IMG/VR virus record: IMGVR_UViG_3300020576_008020
Strand: one strand, 5' to 3'
From: an uncultured virus (IMG/VR IMGVR_UViG_3300020576_008020)
Lineage: Duplodnaviria > Heunggongvirae > Uroviricota > Caudoviricetes
DNA length: 64,000 bases
The notes under the pieces are model-generated. The model did not search any database. It was not told the origin of the DNA and saw nothing but the letters and a program-made list of their open reading frames with translations. This document shows positions 1,891 through 63,268 of the stretch, one piece after another. The translations under genes were made by a program, and so were the position numbers. Position 1 is the first letter of the stretch. Every line of letters begins with the position of its first letter.

Positions 1891-2841
1891 ATGGAAAAAG
1901 CTAAAAAGACCGTACAGTTCAATTCATTTCCCGCAATGATTAACGCATTGCCTGACGACAAATCTTGTCGTGAATACTTAGAGCAAAAAATATGGAAAGG
2001 TGGCAATCCAGTATGTCCCTACTGTGGTGGTCATAAACATTACAGGCTCACAGAGCATGGAGAATTTAAGGGGCAATACAAGTGCGCTGATTGCAAAAAG
2101 CGTTATAACGTAATGGTGGGTACAATGTTTGAAGGTACACACATCGGATTGCGTAAATGGTTTATTGCGATTTATATTTTCTCACTTCATAAAAAGGGCG
2201 TTTCATCACATCAGTTAGCAAGTGATTTGGACATCACCCAAAAGTCAGCTTGGTTCTTATTGAGCCGCATACGCCACGCATTTGCGCCAGACCAACCAAC
2301 CGAAGCAATAGACGGTTTGTTTCATGCAGACGAAACTTTCGTAGGTGGCAAGAACAAAAACAGGCATGAGGATAAGAAGATAGACGGCAGCGAAGGGCGC
2401 AGCCTGAAAGATAAAACACCTGTATTCGGTCTTATGCAGGAAGGTGGCTATGTGCGTACCCATGTAGTACCAAACACAAAAGCCGTAACTTTGAAGCCGA
2501 TTATTGAGGGTATGGTAAAGAAGGGTTCTATCATTGTAACAGACGAATGGCTTGCCTATAAAGGCTTGGCAAAGAATTATAACCACGTTGTTATAAATCA
2601 TCTGGAAAATGAGTATGTTAGAGGGGGATTTGACAACAATGGCTTAGAGGGTTTTTGGTCGTTACTGAAAAGAGGCATATACGGAATTTACCACCAAGTA
2701 AGCCCTAAACATTTGAACAAGTATTGTGATGAATTTTCATTCAGGTACAATGCACGTAAGGCAAGTGTAAACGATAAGTTTGACTATTCGCTCGAAAATT
2801 CAACAAGATTAATGTACAAACAATTAATAGGGAAAGCATAA
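1891..2841 (+). CDS. IS1595-family (ISXO2-like) DDE transposase
   Basis: Zn ribbon CPYCG..CADC, GTMFE, HTH region, ADETFVGG / IVTDEW / NGLEGFW motifs. Confidence 0.93.
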   Translation: MEKAKKTVQFNSFPAMINALPDDKSCREYLEQKIWKGGNPVCPYCGGHKHYRLTEHGEFKGQYKCADCKKRYNVMVGTMFEGTHIGLRKWFIAIYIFSLHKKGVSSHQLASDLDITQKSAWFLLSRIRHAFAPDQPTEAIDGLFHADETFVGGKNKNRHEDKKIDGSEGRSLKDKTPVFGLMQEGGYVRTHVVPNTKAVTLKPIIEGMVKKGSIIVTDEWLAYKGLAKNYNHVVINHLENEYVRGGFDNNGLEGFWSLLKRGIYGIYHQVSPKHLNKYCDEFSFRYNARKASVNDKFDYSLENSTRLMYKQLIGKA

Positions 2842-3809
2842 TGTCCAAGACCTTATTAAATAGAAATTTACACGCTGCGAAAAGCTCAAAAAAGGATGAG
2901 TATTATACGCAGTTAGCAGATATAGAAAGAGAGCTAAAGTATTATAAAGCTCACTTCAAAGGGAAAGTGGTTTATTGTAATTGCGATGACCCCCGTATCA
3001 GTAATTTTTTCCATTACTTCTCATATAACTTTAAGAAGTTAGGTCTTAAGAAACTAATCACTACTTGTTATAAAAGCATAAACCCTGAACTATTCAGTAA
3101 GAACGATTCTGAAAGAGCGATTTATTCGGAGTATGATGGGAGTAAGCAGGGTGGTAATGTTCCTGATATAAATGAAATAGGCATCATTCACTTACAGAAT
3201 GATGGCGATTTTCGTAGCGCGGAAAGTGTAGAGTTATTAAATCAAGCCGATATAGTTGTTACTAATCCGCCATTTTCTTTATTTAGGGAGTATGTCGCCC
3301 AATTGATGGAATACGACAAGAAATTTATAATAATTGGGAATATAAATGCCGTATCCTACAAAGAATGCTTTGAGGCAATCAAAGAAAATAAGATGTGGTT
3401 AGGGTATAATTGCGTTAGGCATTTCGTTCAACCAGATGGCACTATGTATGAGACCGCAAGAACTTATTGGTACACCAATCTTGATATAGCCAAACGCCAT
3501 GAGTACATAATACTATACAAAACGTATTTTGGAAATGAAAAAGATTACCCTACTTACGATAACTATGATGCAATAAATGTGGATAGAACGCAGGATATAC
3601 CGATAGATTTTACTGGTGTAATTGGTGTGCCTATTACCTTTCTTGATAAATATAATGCTGCTCAATTTGAGATATTAGGAATGGCGGCTTCTGCTGGTTA
3701 TAGCCCGGAAATTGTAGGCATTCCTTTTAAGGGAGATAAAGATGCTCGACCCCTCGTAAATGGGAAAAATATTTACGCAAGGGTATTTATAAAAAACAAG
3801 CGGATATGA
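2841..3809 (+). CDS. adenine-specific DNA methyltransferase, EcoRI-family
   Basis: DEYYT, VYCNCDDP, GDFRS, VVTNPPFSLFREY, GVPITFLDKY. Confidence 0.88.
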   Translation: MSKTLLNRNLHAAKSSKKDEYYTQLADIERELKYYKAHFKGKVVYCNCDDPRISNFFHYFSYNFKKLGLKKLITTCYKSINPELFSKNDSERAIYSEYDGSKQGGNVPDINEIGIIHLQNDGDFRSAESVELLNQADIVVTNPPFSLFREYVAQLMEYDKKFIIIGNINAVSYKECFEAIKENKMWLGYNCVRHFVQPDGTMYETARTYWYTNLDIAKRHEYIILYKTYFGNEKDYPTYDNYDAINVDRTQDIPIDFTGVIGVPITFLDKYNAAQFEILGMAASAGYSPEIVGIPFKGDKDARPLVNGKNIYARVFIKNKRI

Positions 3810-4906
3810 ATATAGAACTTAAAGAAATAACAGTTCGCGACCTTACTCAGGGGTATCAAGATACCGAAGAGAACGGAGTTATGGGCTATGATGGTAAGTT
3901 AGATATTCGTCCGCCATATCAAAGGGAGTTTATTTATAAAGACAAGCAGAGGGATGCTGTTATAGATACCATAACAAAGGACTTCCCACTTAATGTAATG
4001 TATTGGGCGGTTAGAGAAGATGGTGGATTTGAGGTGATAGATGGGCAGCAGCGGACTATTTCAATCTGCCAATATGTAGAGGGAGATTATTCAGTAGCGA
4101 TTGGTACTTTCCGAGAAAAAAGAGCATTTCACAATTTACAGGATGATGAAAAAGAACAAATACTTAACTATACGCTAATGGTGTATTTGTGTAGTGGCAC
4201 GGACAGCGAAAAACTTGAATGGTTTAAGACGATAAATATTGCAGGAGAAAAATTAACAGACCAAGAACTACGGAACGCTGTTTATCATGGTTTATGGGTT
4301 GCAGATGCAAAAAGATATTTCAGTAAAAGTAATTGTGCCGCTTACGGATTGGGTGGGGATTATGTGTCTGGTGTACCGATTAGGCAAGATTTTTTAGAAA
4401 CTACTATAAGATGGATAAGCAATGATAGCATTGAGGTCTACATGGCTAAACAACAGCATGAGCCTACTGCGAATGAATTGTGGCTGTATTTTCAAAGTGT
4501 GATAAACTGGGTAAAAGTAGTATTCCCGAATTACAGAAAGGAAATGAAGGGCATCCAGTGGGGCTTTTTATATAATCAGTTTAAGGATGGCAGATATGAT
4601 ACCAAGAAAATAGAGAATGAAATTGCAGAACTGATGCAAGACGAGGATGTAACTAATAAGAAAGGCATATATACCTACATACTAACAAGGAACGAAAAGC
4701 ATTTGAATATCCGTGCATTCACAGACAAGCAAATAAGAGAGGCTTACGAAAGACAAAAGGGTATTTGTGTAAAATGTGGTAACAAATTTGAATTGACGGC
4801 GATGGAAGCAGACCATATTACGCCGTGGCATCAAGGCGGCAAAACTTCTGCTGATAATTGCCAAATGCTATGCCAAGACGATAACAGAAGAAAATCCGGT
4901 AAATGA
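3806..4906 (+). CDS. DUF262 (GmrSD-like) + C-terminal HNH endonuclease
   Basis: RPPYQRE, DGQQR motif, CVKC...EADHITPWHQGGKT..NCQMLC..DN. Confidence 0.88.
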   Translation: MNIELKEITVRDLTQGYQDTEENGVMGYDGKLDIRPPYQREFIYKDKQRDAVIDTITKDFPLNVMYWAVREDGGFEVIDGQQRTISICQYVEGDYSVAIGTFREKRAFHNLQDDEKEQILNYTLMVYLCSGTDSEKLEWFKTINIAGEKLTDQELRNAVYHGLWVADAKRYFSKSNCAAYGLGGDYVSGVPIRQDFLETTIRWISNDSIEVYMAKQQHEPTANELWLYFQSVINWVKVVFPNYRKEMKGIQWGFLYNQFKDGRYDTKKIENEIAELMQDEDVTNKKGIYTYILTRNEKHLNIRAFTDKQIREAYERQKGICVKCGNKFELTAMEADHITPWHQGGKTSADNCQMLCQDDNRRKSGK

Positions 4907-8098: not shown

Positions 8099-9310
8099 TT
8101 ACTTCTGACTTCCTGCTTCCACGCCAGCGATGTTTTGCTTAGCTCCACAGCCTGTTTGGACGTGCCCCGCCCTGTTTTCTTCTTCACTGTTGTTTTTTAA
8201 TATCTTCTCCAGTCCCATGCTTTTTATGTTCCGCGCCGCATTTACGTCACGGTCATGTAGCGTACCGCAGTTTCCGCACAGCCACTCCCGGTCTTTAAGC
8301 GTCAGCGTATCATTGACAGTACTGCACTCAGAGCATGTTTTGGTACTTTTCTCAAAACGGCCTATTACTACCACGTTTTTGCCTGCCCACTCGGATTTGT
8401 ATTTCAGCAGGCGAATAAACTCCGCCCAACCGACATCACTAATGCCGAATGCCAGGCTGCGGTTCTTTACCATATTTGAGACTGCCAGGTCTTCAATACA
8501 AAACGTATGCGCTTGGCTCTCGCGCAATAGCATTGTACTCAGTTTATGCAGATTATCCTGTCTTCTGTTTTTTACTTTTTCGTGCTGGGCTGCAACCAGC
8601 TTGTTTGCCTTTTTGCGATTGTTGCTGCCTTTTTTCTTTTTAGAAGCACGGCGTTGTAGAATTTTTAGTCTTTCCAGCGCCTGCTTTAAAAACTTAGGGT
8701 TATTGAATTTCCGGCCATCATTGAGTATCGCCAGGTCGGTAATTCCCAGGTCTATGCCAATGGTTGTCTCAGCAGTTATGGGCTGCTTTTGTGGCAGTCC
8801 CTGCTCATTATCCACCAGTATACTGGCAAAGTATTTATCAGTGGGTGTTTTGCTGATGGTAACTGTCCTGATTTTACCTTTTATTTTCCTGCCGTCAAGG
8901 CGGATAGGTATGTTTGGTATTTTAGGTATGGTCAACAGACTTTTTTCAAAGTCTACTTTTCGAGGCCCATCGGGGCAGGAGAAGCTCTGCCGGTTGCAGC
9001 GCTTTTTATATTTTGGAAAACCAAAGTCATGTTTGAAGAAATTATTAAATGCCGTTCCTACTTGCCTGATAGATGATTGAATGGAGTGACTGTAGGGCTC
9101 ATTCAACCATTCGTACTCTTTATCTTTCTTCAGTTCCGAGAATTGATTGATAAGGTCAAACGCAGACAAGCTGATTTTATGGTCTTTATACAGCCGTATC
9201 TTCGTTTCAAGCGCAAGATTGTATATAAGCCGACAACAACCAAATGTCTTGGCCATGAGCGTCTTCTGCTCATTATCAGGATATATGCGGTATTTGTAGG
9301 CCTTTAACAT
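8099..9310 (-). CDS. tnpB: RNA-guided endonuclease TnpB (IS200/IS605 family)
   Basis: MLKAYKYRIYP N-terminus, RuvC GIDLG / IEDL / DRDVNAA, Zn finger CSEC..CGNC; catalytic residues intact. Confidence 0.93.
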   Translation of the reverse strand: MLKAYKYRIYPDNEQKTLMAKTFGCCRLIYNLALETKIRLYKDHKISLSAFDLINQFSELKKDKEYEWLNEPYSHSIQSSIRQVGTAFNNFFKHDFGFPKYKKRCNRQSFSCPDGPRKVDFEKSLLTIPKIPNIPIRLDGRKIKGKIRTVTISKTPTDKYFASILVDNEQGLPQKQPITAETTIGIDLGITDLAILNDGRKFNNPKFLKQALERLKILQRRASKKKKGSNNRKKANKLVAAQHEKVKNRRQDNLHKLSTMLLRESQAHTFCIEDLAVSNMVKNRSLAFGISDVGWAEFIRLLKYKSEWAGKNVVVIGRFEKSTKTCSECSTVNDTLTLKDREWLCGNCGTLHDRDVNAARNIKSMGLEKILKNNSEEENRAGHVQTGCGAKQNIAGVEAGSQK

Positions 9311-9366: not shown

Positions 9367-11928
9367 TCAATAGTTGCTACCGGTAGTTATGACGTTACCA
9401 AATAAATCTGTTGGTACTTGATGATTTTGATTAAAGTCCTCTCTACCAGGCAAGTCCTCAAACAGCGTTACCGGAATTCTTACAGCGTTTTTCTTGCGCT
9501 CTTCATAATCCCTGAGTTGCTGCTGCATTTCCGACTCCGACTCCAAGGCCATATTGGTAATCTTTTCCAGAAAATCCTGCTCCTTAATTTGCTCAACCTG
9601 TAATTTACGCTCTTTTCTTCTAGCATTAATTTCTCTCTTCCGTTCTTTATAGAAAGTTTCGAGCTTCTTTTTGTTTGCCTGGCCAATCTCGCTGGTTGTT
9701 GCTTTTTGCAGCTTCAACTCATCCATAATATCTTGCTGCTCCTGCTCATTAGATATTGCAATATACCTTATGAAGGCATCAAAATTACGGGATACCTCTA
9801 CGTAGCGCTTCAGCATGTCAATTGTTGACTCAGGCTGCTCATCATCATCGCTTTCTTCAGCAATAGTAATGCCGCCATCTTCATAACGTACATCCGGGCT
9901 GTTTGCATCAAATGTGGTATTGCTACCATCGGCAATTTTTATTTGATTTGATTCAAAGACTGCATATATCTCCGGGTTACGTATCTGGGTGCCGGCAAAG
10001 GAAATAAAACTAAACTTTACAATTAAACCATCGTGCCCTTTACCAATAAGCTGATTGCGCCAGTTCTCAAACCATATGGCATCTTTAGCATGAGCATCCC
10101 TGATTGCATCCCATTTTTCCTGAGTGATGACATACGGCTTTTGAATAGACAAATAATAGGGCACATGCGCTCTGCCAAACATTTCCGCATAATCTTTGTC
10201 ATCGGTAAAAAAGAAACCAAACTTATCGCGAACAGTAGTCTTATCGTAGGTATAAAATGGGTCCGACTCCGTACCATGGTAAACTTTTGCCGGCTGGCCA
10301 TTTTCATCTACAGCCTTGCTGGAGGCAAACCATTTTTTAAAATTGTCTGAATCTACAATTACACCGCCGGACTCGTGCTTTTTCATTATCAATTTTGAGG
10401 TATCCAAAACAATTATTTCGCCAGTGTCCCCGTTTTCATATACCGTAATAATACAGTCATAACCTGCGGCAATAAGTTTATCAGATAACTTTTTGCCTTT
10501 TGCCTTTTGCTTTTTGGACAAATCATACTTCCATGAAACAAGCGCATTGCCATTAACCGGTATTATTAATGGATTGATAGCTTTAAATTCGGCAACCTCA
10601 ATCGTTGGCAGCCTGTCACCAAAATCTTTGTATTGCTCTATTGCATAGTATCCCGCAGGCTCTACATCCTGACCAAACCTTTTACCTAAGTATGGCGCTT
10701 TTTCTGTATTATGAAGAAGAGTTAGTTTTTCGCCTTTAAGCTTATCCATAAAGTCCACAACACCTCCCTGCTCCTTACGCTCATACACAGAATCTCTTAC
10801 TTTTTTTATTTCCTGTTCACTTAGATTAAGCTTTTTGAACAAATGCAGGTCTATGTAATCCTTTACGCCCCCATAATTATACCCGTCATAATACTTATCC
10901 TCCAGCTCTATAAACTGATGTTCACCAGACTGAGTACTATGCGCCACTAATATTTTTGCTTGAGGATAATTTTTCTTTACGTATTTCGCTACTTTTTCGC
11001 AGCTACCGGCTATCAGATGCTCCCTGGTTAAATTGCTGACATGCTCCAGTTTTGCATACTTAAGAAACTTTTTGTCTTTGGGTAGCTGCTCCAAAAAAAT
11101 GACTATGTCCTGTTGCTTTGTTTGTGTTTCTTTACCATTACCACTTAACTCACCACCGGACTCCATTTTTTTTACAGACCCGCCTCCCTTAAAACCATCA
11201 ATGTCTTTAATATCCATTATACGCCCATTGGTGATATACTCTTCCTCCAGTCCCGGTATAAGATACTGGTTCTTTAGCATAGTATGGCCGTGGCCAACCT
11301 TAACTGCCACAGCCTTGGACATACGGATAAAATCTTTTTTACGCTGCTTTTCATCCTCAGCTATATTATTTGCGTGCAGCTTTTGTATCAGCCACTTATT
11401 GGCGGAGAAACCCCTTATATCCTTGGCCGTGATACCAAAATCAGATAGGTACCGGTTTACGCGGTCATTTTTTATTTTAAATCCATCGCCGGTACAAAAA
11501 AGGTACTTTGACTTAGATAGCTTCATTGCTTTACGCAAGGCATTGGATAAGCGCTCATCAGTAACCACCTTTTCCTGCTTAACGCCGGACTTCCCGGTAT
11601 ACCGAAGGTGAATGCTATTGCCTTCTATTTTAACCTGCGATTTCAGCAGCCCGGTAATGCCTCTATGTCCCTTTGATGCAGAATCATCGTTCCCTACACG
11701 CTCAGCAGACTTATCCATTAATGACACCACGCAGGCGGTCAAAAACACCTTTTCATCATCACTCTTCATGTCACTGGTGATGTTATACCGCAGCTTCTGC
11801 ATATTATGGGCAAGCATTTGCACCTGGCCCTGTTTTTTCTTCCAGCGCCGACGCAGCTCTGCTGCCGTTGCCGGCTTGGGCGGAACAAAAGTTTTTGCGT
11901 TGCCTTTTATTTTGCTGGTACCTGCCAT
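9367..11928 (-). CDS. polyvalent protein: N-terminal DNA topoisomerase IB + ART-PolyVal-like ADP-ribosyltransferase domain(s)
   Basis: Topo IB motifs ERVGN, GKSG, TAKDIR, VGH..MLKNQY; NFKKWF..SK.VDENGQP..VYHGT, GFFFT, GHDGLI, NQIK..N..FD..SPDVRY. Confidence 0.8.
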   Translation of the reverse strand: MAGTSKIKGNAKTFVPPKPATAAELRRRWKKKQGQVQMLAHNMQKLRYNITSDMKSDDEKVFLTACVVSLMDKSAERVGNDDSASKGHRGITGLLKSQVKIEGNSIHLRYTGKSGVKQEKVVTDERLSNALRKAMKLSKSKYLFCTGDGFKIKNDRVNRYLSDFGITAKDIRGFSANKWLIQKLHANNIAEDEKQRKKDFIRMSKAVAVKVGHGHTMLKNQYLIPGLEEEYITNGRIMDIKDIDGFKGGGSVKKMESGGELSGNGKETQTKQQDIVIFLEQLPKDKKFLKYAKLEHVSNLTREHLIAGSCEKVAKYVKKNYPQAKILVAHSTQSGEHQFIELEDKYYDGYNYGGVKDYIDLHLFKKLNLSEQEIKKVRDSVYERKEQGGVVDFMDKLKGEKLTLLHNTEKAPYLGKRFGQDVEPAGYYAIEQYKDFGDRLPTIEVAEFKAINPLIIPVNGNALVSWKYDLSKKQKAKGKKLSDKLIAAGYDCIITVYENGDTGEIIVLDTSKLIMKKHESGGVIVDSDNFKKWFASSKAVDENGQPAKVYHGTESDPFYTYDKTTVRDKFGFFFTDDKDYAEMFGRAHVPYYLSIQKPYVITQEKWDAIRDAHAKDAIWFENWRNQLIGKGHDGLIVKFSFISFAGTQIRNPEIYAVFESNQIKIADGSNTTFDANSPDVRYEDGGITIAEESDDDEQPESTIDMLKRYVEVSRNFDAFIRYIAISNEQEQQDIMDELKLQKATTSEIGQANKKKLETFYKERKREINARRKERKLQVEQIKEQDFLEKITNMALESESEMQQQLRDYEERKKNAVRIPVTLFEDLPGREDFNQNHQVPTDLFGNVITTGSNY

Positions 11929-45916: not shown

Positions 45917-46636
45917 GAATGCTGATTTTATAATTTAATGTTTGTTGCTTTGCGCTGCTTGTCAAACTTATTTTTTTCTTTTTCTGCTTTTTTTATACTT
46001 CTGTTGCCCTCACTCCCTGGGGGGGCCTCCTCTTATGCACCTATTCTTAGTAATATAATTACCAATCAAAGGTTGTCTCGGAATTTCAGGTATGTATGTA
46101 CGCATGTTGCTGGCGTGTAACGTTATCATACCTTTTTCTTTTTCCGGTAACTTAATAGTATCAATTTCCGTGCCAATTGGTTGCTTTGGGTCGGTTACTA
46201 CCAATAATGGTGTTTCTAAGCGATGCAGCATCAGCAGCTCCAGAGAAAGCAGAGATGGCGCATAGTGGCCGATTATTCCAAAACTCAAGGGCGAAATTTT
46301 AAGACGATTTTTACTTAGCATTGACTTTGGCAATTTTTTTGTCAATAATTTCCATGCAGTTTGCTATGCCTTCTTGAACGACACCAAATCCTTTCCATTT
46401 TTTTTTCAACTTTCCCATTTCTGCTTTTACTTGCTTCAGGTGATGAAGAACGGCATTTTTTGATACCTTCTTGTCATATTGCATGCGCTTAAACTTGTTC
46501 ATAATCCTATCGGCCAAATCGGGCGTAAGTTCCGTTACGGGCAAAAAATCCCGGTCGATTGCACTTGTGCTTTTGCCAGATGTCTTTCTGCCGTAGTCAT
46601 TGCTACCTGGACCGATTAGGCCATTTTCTCCTGATT

Positions 46637-49113: not shown

Positions 49114-49460
49114 GTTGTATTTACCTTTTTTTGACAATGTGGTTTATGTGGTTTATGTGGTTTGCGATATTTTATGCTCTTCTCGTTGTAATTACCTTTT
49201 AAATTGTGGTCATTTACAACTTTTGCTAGAAGACGAAGATTTAATTGCTGTTGTAACTACCTTTCAAAATGTGGTCATTAACAACCAGATTTAAGAGGAA
49301 TAATCGTTCCCACACGTTGTAATTACCTTTCAAAATGTGGTCATTAACAATTCCTCCCGAATTATGCGAATACATGCCGGAGTTGTAACTACCTTTCAAA
49401 TTGAGGTCATTTACAACTTAGGGAAAAATGAAACTACTACCCTTCGTTGCAATTACCTTA
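49114..49460 (-). CRISPR. CRISPR mini-array: 4 full 36-bp repeats plus 2 degenerate/partial end repeats
   Basis: + strand GTTGTAAYTACCTTTYAAAWTGWGGTCATTWACAAY at 49185, 49250, 49316, 49382; unique spacers of 29, 30, 30, 28 bp; partial copies at 49446 and 49114. Confidence 0.92.
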
Positions 49461-49625
49461 AATGCAGTTTTTGTTGGAACAAATATTTTTTTAAAAAAAA
49501 GGTATTTAGGAGTGGGAACCTGCCCCTCCTACTAAGGACGTACAACCGCCCCAACAAATTTTATCTTATGTCAAAGAACTTTGCGCTAAACCTTATTTTA
49601 GGCTTTGCCTGGTCTAGTGTAATGC
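49461..49625 (-). ncRNA. candidate tracrRNA / guide scaffold or array leader
   Basis: gap between effector stop and array; AGGAG..CTCCT hairpin 49508-49530, anti-repeat-like 49533-49546, boxA-like GTTCTTTGACA 49569-49579. Confidence 0.45.
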
Positions 49626-50825
49626 TTATGCTGGCTTTCCGCTTACCACAGCCGTTACCCCTTCGGCAGATTCTACTATTGCTTCCGGCTCTTTCTCCTC
49701 TTCACCAACTATCTCTACAATTATGCCCACCTTGGCGGCTTTGTACTTTATTTTGTCAGCCAGGTTATAATAGCTCCAGGACGCCAGCAGGAATTTGCCT
49801 TTTTCTGTGCCATCGTGCGTTTGCTCCACAACTTCCTCATAATTGTCCAGTACTATCTTTCCGATGCCGCGCTTGATGCAATAGTCAATTAGCATGCGGC
49901 TATACAGGTGCATGCGGTTGTTGATATAGTTATCTTCGGCTTTTTTAAACCGGTCCGTGGCTTGCATTTTTATGTCGCGACCCTTCCCTCCCTTATTGTA
50001 CTTGCTGGCTTTTTGTATTCTGGTTAGCGCTCCCTTAATAGCCAGGCGTCTGTACAGGTATTCTTCAGCCGTCCCTATATGAAAAAACTTATCTTTCTTC
50101 TCCAGTATAACAATGGGATAATTGAGGCTTAACCGGCAGGTGGCTACTTTTTTCTGTGACAATTTTATTTTTTCCTTATCAAAGGAGAAGACGGTCAGCA
50201 GAAACATTTTCATTTTTCCATTCCTTTTTTCCAGAACCAGGGAGGAATCACAAAGCTTGTAATCTGCCGTTACCAAGGCCCTGTCAAATATTTCTTCGTT
50301 ACGACTCAGGTCTTTACCAAAGTAGGTCTTGAACGGCAGGCCATATACAAAGAAAGTATAGTTACCATCTTCTTCACTTTTTTTCCAGTTGGATATATCC
50401 GCTGCCCGTATTGGCATGGGAATGTCTTTGCGAAATGAAGCCAGTGATTTGCGCCCTGTTTTTACATCAAAAGCATCAGTTTTGTATTTTTTGCAGACAA
50501 GCGTATTAAGACCGCTCAGCATACCCATTGGGCATTCTCCCTTAAATGCTTCGCTGAGCACCCGGTATGTGGTATTGTCCTTGCTGGTGGTCAGGATGCC
50601 ATCCTCATCTTTTTCAATGTTTGCAAGCTTTACCTTTACATTATCTGTAAGATAAAACAGGTCCTTAATGTTTTCCTGTAGGTGCTGGTGTGTAATAATC
50701 CAGTTGGCAGCCCTGTGTACTATTTTTTGCCAGGAAAATATTTTTGCAAAACTTTCTTTAAGCTGCGACTTTTCAACGTCAATGTTGACTTGTACTTTTC
50801 GGGTGATAACTATTTGTTTGTCCAT
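49626..50825 (-). CDS. nuclease-dead Cas12f-like (TnpB-derived) protein
   Basis: ITRKVQV N-terminus, GRKSLASFRKD, GGKGR, HLYSRMLIDYC, WSYYNL..KIKYKA..GI; RuvC-I reads TCRLSL, RuvC-II reads IVLDNY, no Zn finger or RuvC-III. Confidence 0.85.
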   Translation of the reverse strand: MDKQIVITRKVQVNIDVEKSQLKESFAKIFSWQKIVHRAANWIITHQHLQENIKDLFYLTDNVKVKLANIEKDEDGILTTSKDNTTYRVLSEAFKGECPMGMLSGLNTLVCKKYKTDAFDVKTGRKSLASFRKDIPMPIRAADISNWKKSEEDGNYTFFVYGLPFKTYFGKDLSRNEEIFDRALVTADYKLCDSSLVLEKRNGKMKMFLLTVFSFDKEKIKLSQKKVATCRLSLNYPIVILEKKDKFFHIGTAEEYLYRRLAIKGALTRIQKASKYNKGGKGRDIKMQATDRFKKAEDNYINNRMHLYSRMLIDYCIKRGIGKIVLDNYEEVVEQTHDGTEKGKFLLASWSYYNLADKIKYKAAKVGIIVEIVGEEEKEPEAIVESAEGVTAVVSGKPA

Positions 50826-52166: not shown

Positions 52167-52200
52167 GATTTTTTGTTTAGTTAATGTTAATGTCTATGCT

Positions 52201-52215
52201 GCAATTACCGTGCCA
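52201..52215 (-). promoter_or_regulatory. sigma54-type promoter heading the run that includes dCas12f
   Basis: TGGCACG-GTAA-TTGC. Confidence 0.8.
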
Positions 52216-52226
52216 AAAATTATTAC

Positions 52227-53428: not shown

Positions 53429-53441
53429 ATACCGTTATCAT

Positions 53442-53456
53442 GCAATTCTCGTGCCA
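53442..53456 (-). promoter_or_regulatory. sigma54-type promoter
   Basis: TGGCACG-AGAA-TTGC. Confidence 0.8.
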
Positions 53457-53657
53457 AAAATTATCTTTGAAGGTAAAAATATGTTGGCTCAGTATTATAG
53501 TGCGTGCATATGTATTCCTTGGTCAGGTGTGATGCGGCTCGCATGGGTAGGCCATGAATAAACATGCCGTCAATAAGCCATTCAAGTATTTTGCCTTTTT
53601 CGTGCAAAAGTTGCTGGTAATCAATTTCTTGCGCCTGTTGCGGCATATCCTGTAGTG

Positions 53658-61315: not shown

Positions 61316-63268
61316 TTATTTAACCACAGCAAGCCGTTCACTTTTAATTAGACTACCAGCTAATATAATGCTGACTATATAATGTCCACTCGGCAAATCC
61401 TGAGTACTAAGACTTATCCTATGTTCTCCTTCTGGTATGTTGTCATTATGCAATCGCTCACTATACTTTCCATCAACACTTCTAATTTCGATAGTACAAA
61501 TACCTTCGTAGTCGGTATTAAATTCAATGGTGAAATTATTTGAGGCGGGATTAGGATATAGTTTTGTATTTACTGCCTCGTTGACATTTATGGTATTTAA
61601 TGCAAAGAAGTTACCTTTTGCTATTTCGCCTATCCATGTGCCACCAGTATTATCAGCTTTTCCATAGCAGCCAGAAGCCCAAACAATTGGGGTTAATGAA
61701 TTTTGTTTTCTGCATAAACCTGTATAATCCCCCCATCTTCCCATGTTGTGTGGTATTGCTTGGTAGTCCCATACAAAACTGCTGCCTGATTTTATTAATA
61801 GAGCGGGTGAGTAATTATTGCTAGCATCAGAACTATATGCGACATAGTATGGGTATGTTGTTGATAAGCTAACATTAGAACACATAATTACATTTTCATC
61901 AGCACCATTTAATCCATAAGAGGCAATATTGGAATGACAAAAATCCCCTGATGTGGTTCCAAATAGCGACCAGCTTGATGGCGGCACAGATGCGCTCGAG
62001 GAACTCCAGATAAGCTTGGCTTTCATTGCATAATTGGCAGAAGCCGAAGCGGAGCTAATAGAAGTAAACGTGAAATAAACACTCCATATTGATGTGGTAG
62101 GATTTCTTATAACAAACCCACCAGTTACTCTGCAATCGCCAACATCCAATTGGTTTGTACTTCCTAGTTGAAAGGCATCATAGCCTATTTCATAGTGAGG
62201 AGAAGCAACATCAATACCAGCAAAAGCATCTGTTGGTTCATACCATGTCCAGAATTGTACAGAGTTACCAATTTGTGATTTTGTGCTGACAAAAGCCATT
62301 GTAGTTGAATATAATCCTGCTTGCCCATAACTTAATGGATAAATAGTAAACCCCTGGTTACCTAAATCATCCAATGGATTTGACCTTTGTAAAGCTGTCC
62401 ATCCAGTTGTAGAGCCACTTAATATTCCAGCCTTAGAGAATCTGAATATAATAGGATATTGAAAAGAATTACTCGAATTATACGCATTGATACTAACATA
62501 AAGAGAGCTTGCATTAATACCAATACTTGGATAATCCATCCAGATGCCCGCTGCTGGTGGTGTATATGTCCAATAACTCCATGCGCCAAGAGGATTTGAC
62601 GTAAGTGGATATGCAATAATTAACTTTGATGTTGACGGTGTTGACCCATCCAAAACAACAAGAAAAAACCTATCTAAAACGTCATCGTAAATTACTTTAG
62701 CATCGTAAAGAACACCTGAAAAACTACTGCTACCTCCCAAAAATGCGTTTATTGAATGCGAGGCCAGCGGAGTTCCAAGAGTATCTTTTATTGTAATGTT
62801 AGAGTTTGTTGTGCTGATTATTATTCCTGAATTTGATATTGCTATGCTATTATCATTCGGGAAGGTTGTGGCGTCATCTGAACTATTAAAGTGATGATTT
62901 AGATAAATCGGTGGTGCCGCGGTTGTTTTATGCCCGTTATTGTTTTCATCTATGATAAATCCTGCTGGAGATTCCTTTTTAATTTGCAGCGTACTATCGC
63001 CACCGTCTTTTCTAAATTTTCTCTTTGATTTTTTAAACTCCCTCAATGCCGTGTCGCCACCTTTATTAAATTCTTGCTTATTATGAATTTTAAAACGTAA
63101 ATCTTTTACAGTATCAGCCTTTATGGGTCTATTATGCGGTGTTCCAGAAATTGGTGTAGCCTTTTTTACATTTTTATTATTAGGAGTATAATTTGGCGCA
63201 CATCTTTGTCCAAATAAAATGAAGGTCTGTAATACTAAGACCAACAATAAAATCAATTTGCCTTTCAT
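61316..63268 (-). CDS. secreted protein with T9SS type A C-terminal sorting domain
   Basis: signal peptide, DYPSIG, RWGDY, KLYPNPA...DLPSGHYIV...K. Confidence 0.85.
   Translation of the reverse strand: MKGKLILLLVLVLQTFILFGQRCAPNYTPNNKNVKKATPISGTPHNRPIKADTVKDLRFKIHNKQEFNKGGDTALREFKKSKRKFRKDGGDSTLQIKKESPAGFIIDENNNGHKTTAAPPIYLNHHFNSSDDATTFPNDNSIAISNSGIIISTTNSNITIKDTLGTPLASHSINAFLGGSSSFSGVLYDAKVIYDDVLDRFFLVVLDGSTPSTSKLIIAYPLTSNPLGAWSYWTYTPPAAGIWMDYPSIGINASSLYVSINAYNSSNSFQYPIIFRFSKAGILSGSTTGWTALQRSNPLDDLGNQGFTIYPLSYGQAGLYSTTMAFVSTKSQIGNSVQFWTWYEPTDAFAGIDVASPHYEIGYDAFQLGSTNQLDVGDCRVTGGFVIRNPTTSIWSVYFTFTSISSASASANYAMKAKLIWSSSSASVPPSSWSLFGTTSGDFCHSNIASYGLNGADENVIMCSNVSLSTTYPYYVAYSSDASNNYSPALLIKSGSSFVWDYQAIPHNMGRWGDYTGLCRKQNSLTPIVWASGCYGKADNTGGTWIGEIAKGNFFALNTINVNEAVNTKLYPNPASNNFTIEFNTDYEGICTIEIRSVDGKYSERLHNDNIPEGEHRISLSTQDLPSGHYIVSIILAGSLIKSERLAVVK

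Follow-up and report, generated by a model that had tools for sequence, protein, structure and literature searches.

The window, by which we mean the whole 64,000-nt stretch of the uncultured-virus record IMGVR_UViG_3300020576_008020, carries on its minus strand a gene for a nuclease-dead Cas12f (dcas12f), followed by a structured RNA element that we call the scaffold, a half repeat with its own spacer, and an array of four full repeats and a degenerate last one (Table 1). The element coordinates of the preliminary description all check on that strand. Among the 39 window ORFs scanned there are endolysin-like and DnaC-like proteins and matches to a methylase, TerC, RNase H and a T9SS tail, and no sigma factor, cas1 or cas2. 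The window looks like a large Bacteroidota phage; we infer the phage label, since the scan saw neither capsid nor terminase, and are helped in this by six relatives that sit in viral contigs. There was no close P0001 relative among 50,697 phage records, and GenBank phages and plasmids gave weak blastn matches only.

Table 1. Features of the dcas12f locus (positions in the window)
Feature	Position	Strand	Description	Basis
dcas12f gene	49626..50825	-	399 aa, nuclease-dead Cas12f	phmmer; alignment to active relatives
boxA-like motif GTTCTTTGACA	49569..49579	-	28 nt before scaffold; possible Nus antitermination site	
Hairpin P1	49535..49552	-	6-nt loop 49546-49541 is anti-repeat 1	covariation of stem and loop
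Hairpin P2	49507..49531	-	has a bulged A	covariation; folding
Anti-repeat 2 (AATACCTTT stretch)	49498..49506	-	pairs with AAGGUA part of repeats	covariation; duplex energy
A/U-rich linker	49461..49497	-	anti-repeat 2 to half repeat	comparison of relatives
Half repeat TAAGGTAATTGCAAC	49446..49460	-	3' 15 nt of repeat; cis handle of putative single guide	
Spacer 0	49418..49445	-	28 nt, of putative fused guide; precedes full repeat 1	
Full repeat 1	49382..49417	-	36 nt	repeat finding
Full repeat 2	49316..49351	-	36 nt; spacer 1 at 49352-49381 precedes	
Full repeat 3	49250..49285	-	36 nt; spacer 2 at 49286-49315 precedes	
Full repeat 4	49185..49220	-	36 nt; spacer 3 at 49221-49249 precedes	
Degenerate last repeat	49114..49135	-	3' part only; spacer 4 precedes	

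In the case of the protein, phmmer finds a full-length relationship to the Fta dCas12f of PDB 9n9c (E 7e-86, residues 7-370), and active Cas12f structures match at E 4e-38 or weaker. NCBIfam TnpB/Cas12f2 matches are below cut-off, the best being a TnpB family. Alignment to active relatives places Arg231 at the RuvC-I Asp and Asp327 at the RuvC-II Glu, with the zinc finger and RuvC-III absent, and the RuvC-I column is without Asp in all 48 of 48 close homologs. The intact RuvC D-E-D and zinc finger by which an active TnpB or TranC is recognised are not present, and the protein is, as read from its sequence, a dead, truncated Cas12f derivative.

With regard to sigma factors, a profile built from four seed loci has no match in the window. 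Enough upstream DNA is available for 139 of 167 loci to be informative, and by this profile 101 of the 139 have an adjacent sigma gene; the 26 loci closest to the window include 20 informative ones, and beside none of these is a sigma gene found. The adjacent rpoE in an operon with dcas12f that characterises dCas12f-sigmaE systems is absent from the window, and the locus has the features of the rpoE-less CRISPR-linked cluster, namely no rpoE, an array nearby and a co-varying RNA upstream of the array. In one close relative (L082) genes for an ECF sigma and FecR lie together some 1.8 kb upstream, and these we read as an ordinary FecI/FecR pair.

The scaffold was aligned over 21 training scaffolds chosen by eye from the closest loci. 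The 13 named pairs are paired in 98.5% of 273 cells, a level reached by 0 of 500 shuffles and to be compared with 34-48% in slid controls, and 9 of the 13 have two-sided changes. The preliminary description had looked to a covariance model of homologous loci, and conserved co-varying structure is indeed found there. Two-sided changes occur in 3 of 5 pairs of the P1 stem (99% of cells paired) and in 6 of 8 pairs of P2 (98% paired, with pair probability 0.80-0.99 in folding), and RNAalifold, unprompted, gives the same two-hairpin fold from the 21-scaffold alignment. P2 is the hairpin that had been noticed earlier at 49530-49508. Folding of the 208-nt interval from the gene to the end of spacer 0 gave a z of -1.43 with 19 of 200 shuffles as good, and as the interval alone is thus no better than shuffles the case for structure rests on comparison. 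The linker varies in length and sequence among relatives; an 8-U tract lies at 49500-49493, and anti-repeat 2 runs into it.

A model of the scaffold (R1) has one clear site in the window, and its matches number 131 in 87 sources and a further 163 in 80, every one on the strand of the gene; Rfam gave no meaningful match, with one at E 2.3. Because R1 also matches rpoE-linked dCas12f loci, including those of Pedobacter and Chitinophaga, we take the scaffold below the gene to be a member of the dCas12f guide scaffold family.

The 3' motif of the repeat occurs 7 times in the window where 0.06 are expected, 6 of the 7 being within this array, and the array repeats are spaced at 65-66 nt. Internal repeats are 84-92% to the reference and differ among themselves, and spacer 4 contains a short tandem duplication. 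The first unit is a true half repeat, as had been proposed, for its last 15 nt are identical to repeats 2 and 4 at 13 of 15 positions and the 21 nt before it match the repeat consensus at only about 7 of 21. Scaffold, half repeat and spacer 0 are contiguous on the minus strand, again as proposed. The first 10 nt of spacer 0 are themselves 9/10 identical to the repeat, the one in-phase case among 176 spacers, and spacer 0 may be partly repeat-derived.

A contig of a related strain (run X6) has 76 differences from the window in 1675 nt. Among the differences listed none falls in the 158 nt of scaffold and junction at 49426-49583, half repeat included; the first 20 nt of spacer 0 are kept, with differences at three places near its distal end, and spacer 1 is replaced. 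Additional copies of the scaffold are present in other related contigs, where a half repeat is again found but the first spacers differ.

The preliminary description had the stretch GTTGTACGTCCTTA (49546-49533, with no second site in the window when up to 2 mismatches are allowed) pairing at both ends with the half repeat, through GTTGTA:TGCAAC and CCTTA:TAAGG. Both complementarities exist as written, and the first end stands, GTTGTA being by covariation an anti-repeat for the last 6 nt of the repeat. The CCTTA:TAAGG helix does not, with 3.61 of 5 positions paired against 3.75 in permutations and no covariation. The CC of CCUUA is part of the P1 stem, and the fold as first proposed comes to -17.6 against -23.1 kcal/mol, with pair probabilities of 0.00. 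GUUGUA is in the P1 loop, pairing with the last 6 nt of the repeat as a pseudoknot, and a second anti-repeat (AATACCTTT) that had been missed lies 3' of hairpin 2.

The anti-repeats were assessed on 236 of the 294 R1 matches, those that are stronger and untruncated. Arrays, called by repeat finding alone, lie behind 65 of the 236 scaffolds, and after 18 of the 65 were dropped for a truncated or mis-called consensus there remained 47, of 22 distinct types. Between the P1 loop and the final 6 nt of its cognate repeat 5.59 of 6 positions are paired, compared with 4.84 when permuted, and the stretch just 3' of P2 pairs with its cognate repeat at 6.11 of 7 compared with 5.40, neither being reached in 10000 permutations, which keep relatedness in, several of the 22 types being from different families. 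Matched changes of anti-repeat and repeat are also found outside the training set (L041, L072, L073, L076, L080 and L155). In the window, anti-repeat 2 forms duplexes of -7.8 to -8.2 kcal/mol with repeats 1-4 and of -6.0 kcal/mol with the half repeat, the control mean being -2.0, and for either anti-repeat the full repeats are a better partner than the half repeat.

Both anti-repeats are thus complementary to the array repeats and co-vary with them, as in a tracrRNA of type V-F-like kind, and because of this covariation the scaffold is, on comparative grounds, a predicted tracrRNA. It resembles the plan of Cas12f tracrRNAs in having two separate anti-repeat contacts. At L001:3790-3815 and L005:2120-2135 the 3' end of the tracrRNA is complementary to the 5' end of the repeat and also looks handle-like, owing to the palindromic ends of these repeats; in this way a single guide might arise from a tracrRNA without any half repeat.

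Three layouts are found in the family: full split, half-repeat (the window, L002 and L082) and compact single guide (L003, L038 and L018). The close relatives L002, with two cassettes, and L082, with three, have the same half-repeat layout as the window. In L003, L027 and L038 the handle follows P2 by 20-30 nt, too short a distance for a second transcript to fit. Among the 32 array cassettes that lack a sigma gene, the first unit is a full repeat in 23, half or eroded in 7 and far away in 2, by a noisy classifier that puts the window handle at 34 nt instead of 61 and for which several consensus sequences are out of phase. Given those 23, the scaffold has to be able to function with full repeats, and its use in trans by the full downstream repeats of the window, as first suggested, is plausible because the scaffold is complementary to them.

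Some other arrangements may be recorded here. At L073:2031-2160 and L077:2734-2860 the first full repeat begins directly behind anti-repeat 2, some 8 nt from P2, which amounts to fusion with a whole repeat. Two or three scaffold and array cassettes per dcas12f, each with its own spacers, are present at L002, L003, L082, L165, L001 and L163, and half-repeat mini-arrays with short spacers lie behind a compact guide at L001:5733-5900 and L027:2395-2600. An array was called at 17 of the 101 sigma-linked loci, and Parapedobacter loci (e.g. L098, L101, L107 and L108) are rpoE-linked with long full-repeat arrays behind a tracr-like scaffold.

In a fold of the naked 139-nt RNA, made without the pseudoknot, the main partner of anti-repeat 2 is the start of spacer 0, its pair probability with the half repeat being 0.01-0.09; the full repeats fold on themselves at -6.5 to -7.5 kcal/mol. 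The 8-U tract after anti-repeat 2 could end the transcript; the terminator scan does not call this site, where the U run starts 6 nt after the stem, and sigma-70 promoter and terminator scans were in general at chance level. A boxA-like motif, with at most 1 mismatch to a consensus taken from bioRxiv 10.64898/2026.07.09.737519, is present 17-30 nt before 57 of 215 scaffolds (0 of 215 in the reverse-complement control and 5 of 1180 shuffles), and before 23 of 55 scaffolds with arrays. The motif suggests Nus-type antitermination and read-through of guide transcripts. The boxA label rests on the consensus only, because in the Chitinophagaceae genome G402 none of 10 sites has an Rfam match nearby, giving no tie to rRNA operons.

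The tree contains 49 dead proteins, thinned at 90% or 70% identity from 147 full-length ones, and is rooted on 11 active-type relatives. The dead group has support of 100/100 and the sigma-linked group, nested in it, of 100/99. The window protein is in a separate 9-row clade with no sigma gene seen and support of 100/98, and the earliest-branching dead lineage consists almost entirely of full-repeat split cassettes. First-unit labels (12 fused and 16 full rows) were set by eye before the tree was built, and the tree requires 7 or more changes to account for the half or compact first units, a single fused clade being rejected (p-AU 6e-5), which suggests repeated erosion of the first repeat. In this tree, made without the Hoffmann sequences discussed below, the efflux-adjacent loci L083 and L089 branch apart from the window clade.

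The route to such a layout has been described by Altae-Tran 2023 (PNAS; PMC10691335), in the parts of the paper available: catalysis and RuvC-III were lost from Cas12f, of the array only a half repeat was left close to the tracrRNA, and tracrRNA and half repeat became joined, the dead clade being placed inside Cas12f1. The half repeat fused to a tracrRNA is thus a real and already described step, and the window is a further example. It is like the half-DR stage of their Sigma-TnpB lineage, again as available there, in having a dead Cas12f without RuvC-III, a half repeat close behind the tracrRNA and a scaffold 3' end that is the repeat 3' end, but it differs in keeping four full repeats, in having no RpoE and in its phage-like context. 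The direction is opposite to that of the preliminary description, from split guide to re-fused guide; for want of a TnpB root in the tree, it is the available account in PMC10691335 and the dead active site that support this overall direction.

With regard to other systems, the accessible parts of Hoffmann 2026 (Nature, Extended Data Fig. 1a,b; PMC13472631) describe a cluster in which dCas12f lacks rpoE and neighbours an array; a co-varying putative gRNA lies upstream of the array, and repression is proposed. The window resembles this in its nuclease-dead Cas12f without rpoE and gRNA upstream of the array; however their example targets a host RND efflux promoter and the window has its candidate target in a viral contig. 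They report no tracrRNA-like species in the systems tested, whereas the anti-repeats of the window scaffold co-vary with the repeats. The word "phage" appears once in that main text and in none of 4 supplements, as far as these are accessible. The Fta dCas12f-sigmaE system (PDB 9n9c; bioRxiv 10.1101/2025.06.10.658880, in its accessible parts) has a closely related protein, and behind its gene a natural single guide that contains four paired regions and is able to self-fold, but the window has no sigma-E or HTH partner, a longer linker and a variable multi-spacer array. TranC (Jin et al. 2025 Cell, as summarised in the available part of PMC13565253) also has single-guide and split-guide features in one locus, but is on the path from TnpB to Cas12, and the window protein is a dead Cas12f derivative on a return path. 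A landfill virus paper (PMC12607003) describes, in its accessible sections, small virus-encoded type V-like proteins with RuvC motifs missing beside arrays, and these may include relatives of the window dCas12f. We found no paper on a phage-borne member of the dCas12f lineage in a search whose coverage left out most subscription papers.

The job of the system is likely to be RNA-guided DNA binding and silencing. The first 21 nt of spacer 0 match the viral contig L167 (24/28 overall) with a G just 5', and the match lies across the start codon of an ORF of 61 aa that follows a dUTPase gene. This site is a candidate target, to which we give roughly one chance in three, because it has two extra matched nucleotides and the 5' G, to be set against the frequency of 19-nt matches (2 of the 4 other spacers). 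The 61-aa ORF found no relative but itself, and its neighbour gene gives no clue to the host. Spacers 3 and 4 each have one 19-nt match in viral contigs, which ends at the pattern edge and is without a 5' G; we read both as chance. Spacers 1 and 2 have no match in the viral contigs, and 176 spacers from sigma-less loci compared with 1.44 Mb gave no outside targets beyond L167 and the two 19-nt matches. There was no enrichment for spacer 0 in 401 Chitinophagaceae genomes, the 26 with a match being fewer than in the reversed control, and there are no self-targets within the 64-kb window above 13/16 matches. A 5'-G TAM is predicted for this binding, since the TAM-contact residues Y89, R90 and S106 of Fta align with Y87, R88 and S104 of the window protein, and the candidate target has a 5' G.

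We suggest, as the probable explanation, that this is a phage-borne, sigma-less, nuclease-dead Cas12f whose tracrRNA and half repeat can fold in cis, the tracrRNA being also capable of action in trans, and that it binds DNA without cutting. The RNA after the gene would be a compact tracrRNA, comprising P1 with anti-repeat 1 in its loop, P2 and anti-repeat 2, that grips the last 15 nt of any repeat at two places. With the first repeat eroded to those 15 nt, one transcript could fold and load in cis as scaffold, handle and spacer 0, and other copies of the scaffold would pair with the full repeats behind the half repeat, presumably with processing, and load in trans. Probably dimeric, as Fta dCas12f is, the protein would sit on DNA beside a 5'-G motif and leave it uncut, and the bound complex would keep genes from being transcribed, those of competing phages or other mobile DNA being the likeliest. 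It is unlikely that the system is instead purely split, with the tracrRNA ending at the U tract (about 49493) and working in trans only, the half repeat being a decayed first repeat and spacer 0 a leader remnant or ordinary crRNA. Such a system would account for the 8-U tract after P2, the weak cis pairing in silico, the partly repeat-like spacer 0 and the full first repeat of most sigma-less cassettes (23/32); however the U site is not called by the terminator scan, the boxA-like motif upstream suggests read-through, the compact guides of L003, L027 and L038 have no room for a second transcript, and the junction is unchanged in the related strain, among the differences listed. The last point bears also on the idea of a decaying cassette, carried by the phage with no current function, which we think very improbable: the contig of that strain has 76 differences over 1675 nt, none of those listed being in the 158-nt stretch of scaffold and junction, the ORF and RNA structure are intact and spacers turn over in related contigs, although both end repeats are degenerate, the internal repeats differ at 84-92% to the reference, cas1 and cas2 are absent from the ORFs scanned and there is no firm target.

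The high similarity to Fta dCas12f, and a scaffold family common to rpoE-linked loci, raise the question of whether the complex is an activator that borrows a host dCas12f-type sigma-E in trans, as Bacteroidota hosts do carry such sigma factors (101/139 informative loci). We regard this as quite improbable, given that there is no sigma in the window, that the sigma-linked proteins are grouped in a supported clade (100/99) to which the window protein does not belong, and that spacer 0 is not enriched in the 401 Chitinophagaceae genomes. The preliminary description itself took the locus for an ancestral intermediate between TnpB and split-guide Cas12f, TranC-like, with an omega-RNA starting to split. 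A single guide followed by an array does look alike at either end of the path, and the best NCBIfam match, below cut-off, is a TnpB family, but a protein without zinc finger, RuvC-III and RuvC-I Asp cannot be ancestral to active Cas12f, and the published direction in the available part of PMC10691335 is from split to re-fused, with the clade inside Cas12f1. The split cassettes of the earliest dead lineage, the at least 7 changes with rejection of a single fused clade (p-AU 6e-5) and a locus with no transposon features seen also go against this view, which is already largely refuted and to which we give very little credence.

The locus offers a clean, testable natural example of an evolutionary step proposed in print, the joining of tracrRNA and half repeat. 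There is disagreement in print, in the parts of the papers available, as to whether the dCas12f guide came from a tracrRNA and half repeat or has a repeat-spacer origin with no tracrRNA, and the covariation of both anti-repeats with the array repeats favours the former. Taken together, a 399-aa dead effector, a tracrRNA core of about 55 nt and an array of several guides would make a small natural CRISPRi system, and a phage-borne dCas12f system would add a non-cutting tool for phage competition. It is a tentative and rather doubtful extension that a large Bacteroidota phage uses one dual-purpose RNA with dead Cas12f, the cis form being a fixed guide retained in the lineage and the trans form a renewable array, for silencing genes of rival phages (the start codon in L167 being the candidate), with re-fusion being no one ancient event but recurrent, in numerous branches of which several are viral.

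Other parts of the window deserve mention. A separate IS605-type TnpB of 403 aa, with HTH, OrfB and TNB domains, is encoded at 8099-9310 (-) and is unrelated to the array. At 9367-11928 (-) lies the gene for an 853-aa polyvalent protein with a topoisomerase IB core and ADP-ribosyltransferase (ART-PolyVal) and YunG-like domains. An IS1595-family transposase, an EcoRI-type adenine methylase and a GmrSD/HNH gene lie at 1891-4906 (+), on the strand opposite to the remaining window, and resemble an inserted restriction-modification cassette. The phage-like region at 61316-63268 (-) encodes a 650-aa protein with a type IX secretion C-terminal sorting domain. A 29-nt intergenic repeat at 52195-52223 and 53436-53464 (86% alike), with shorter copies near 46162 and 48415, is possibly a phage promoter motif.
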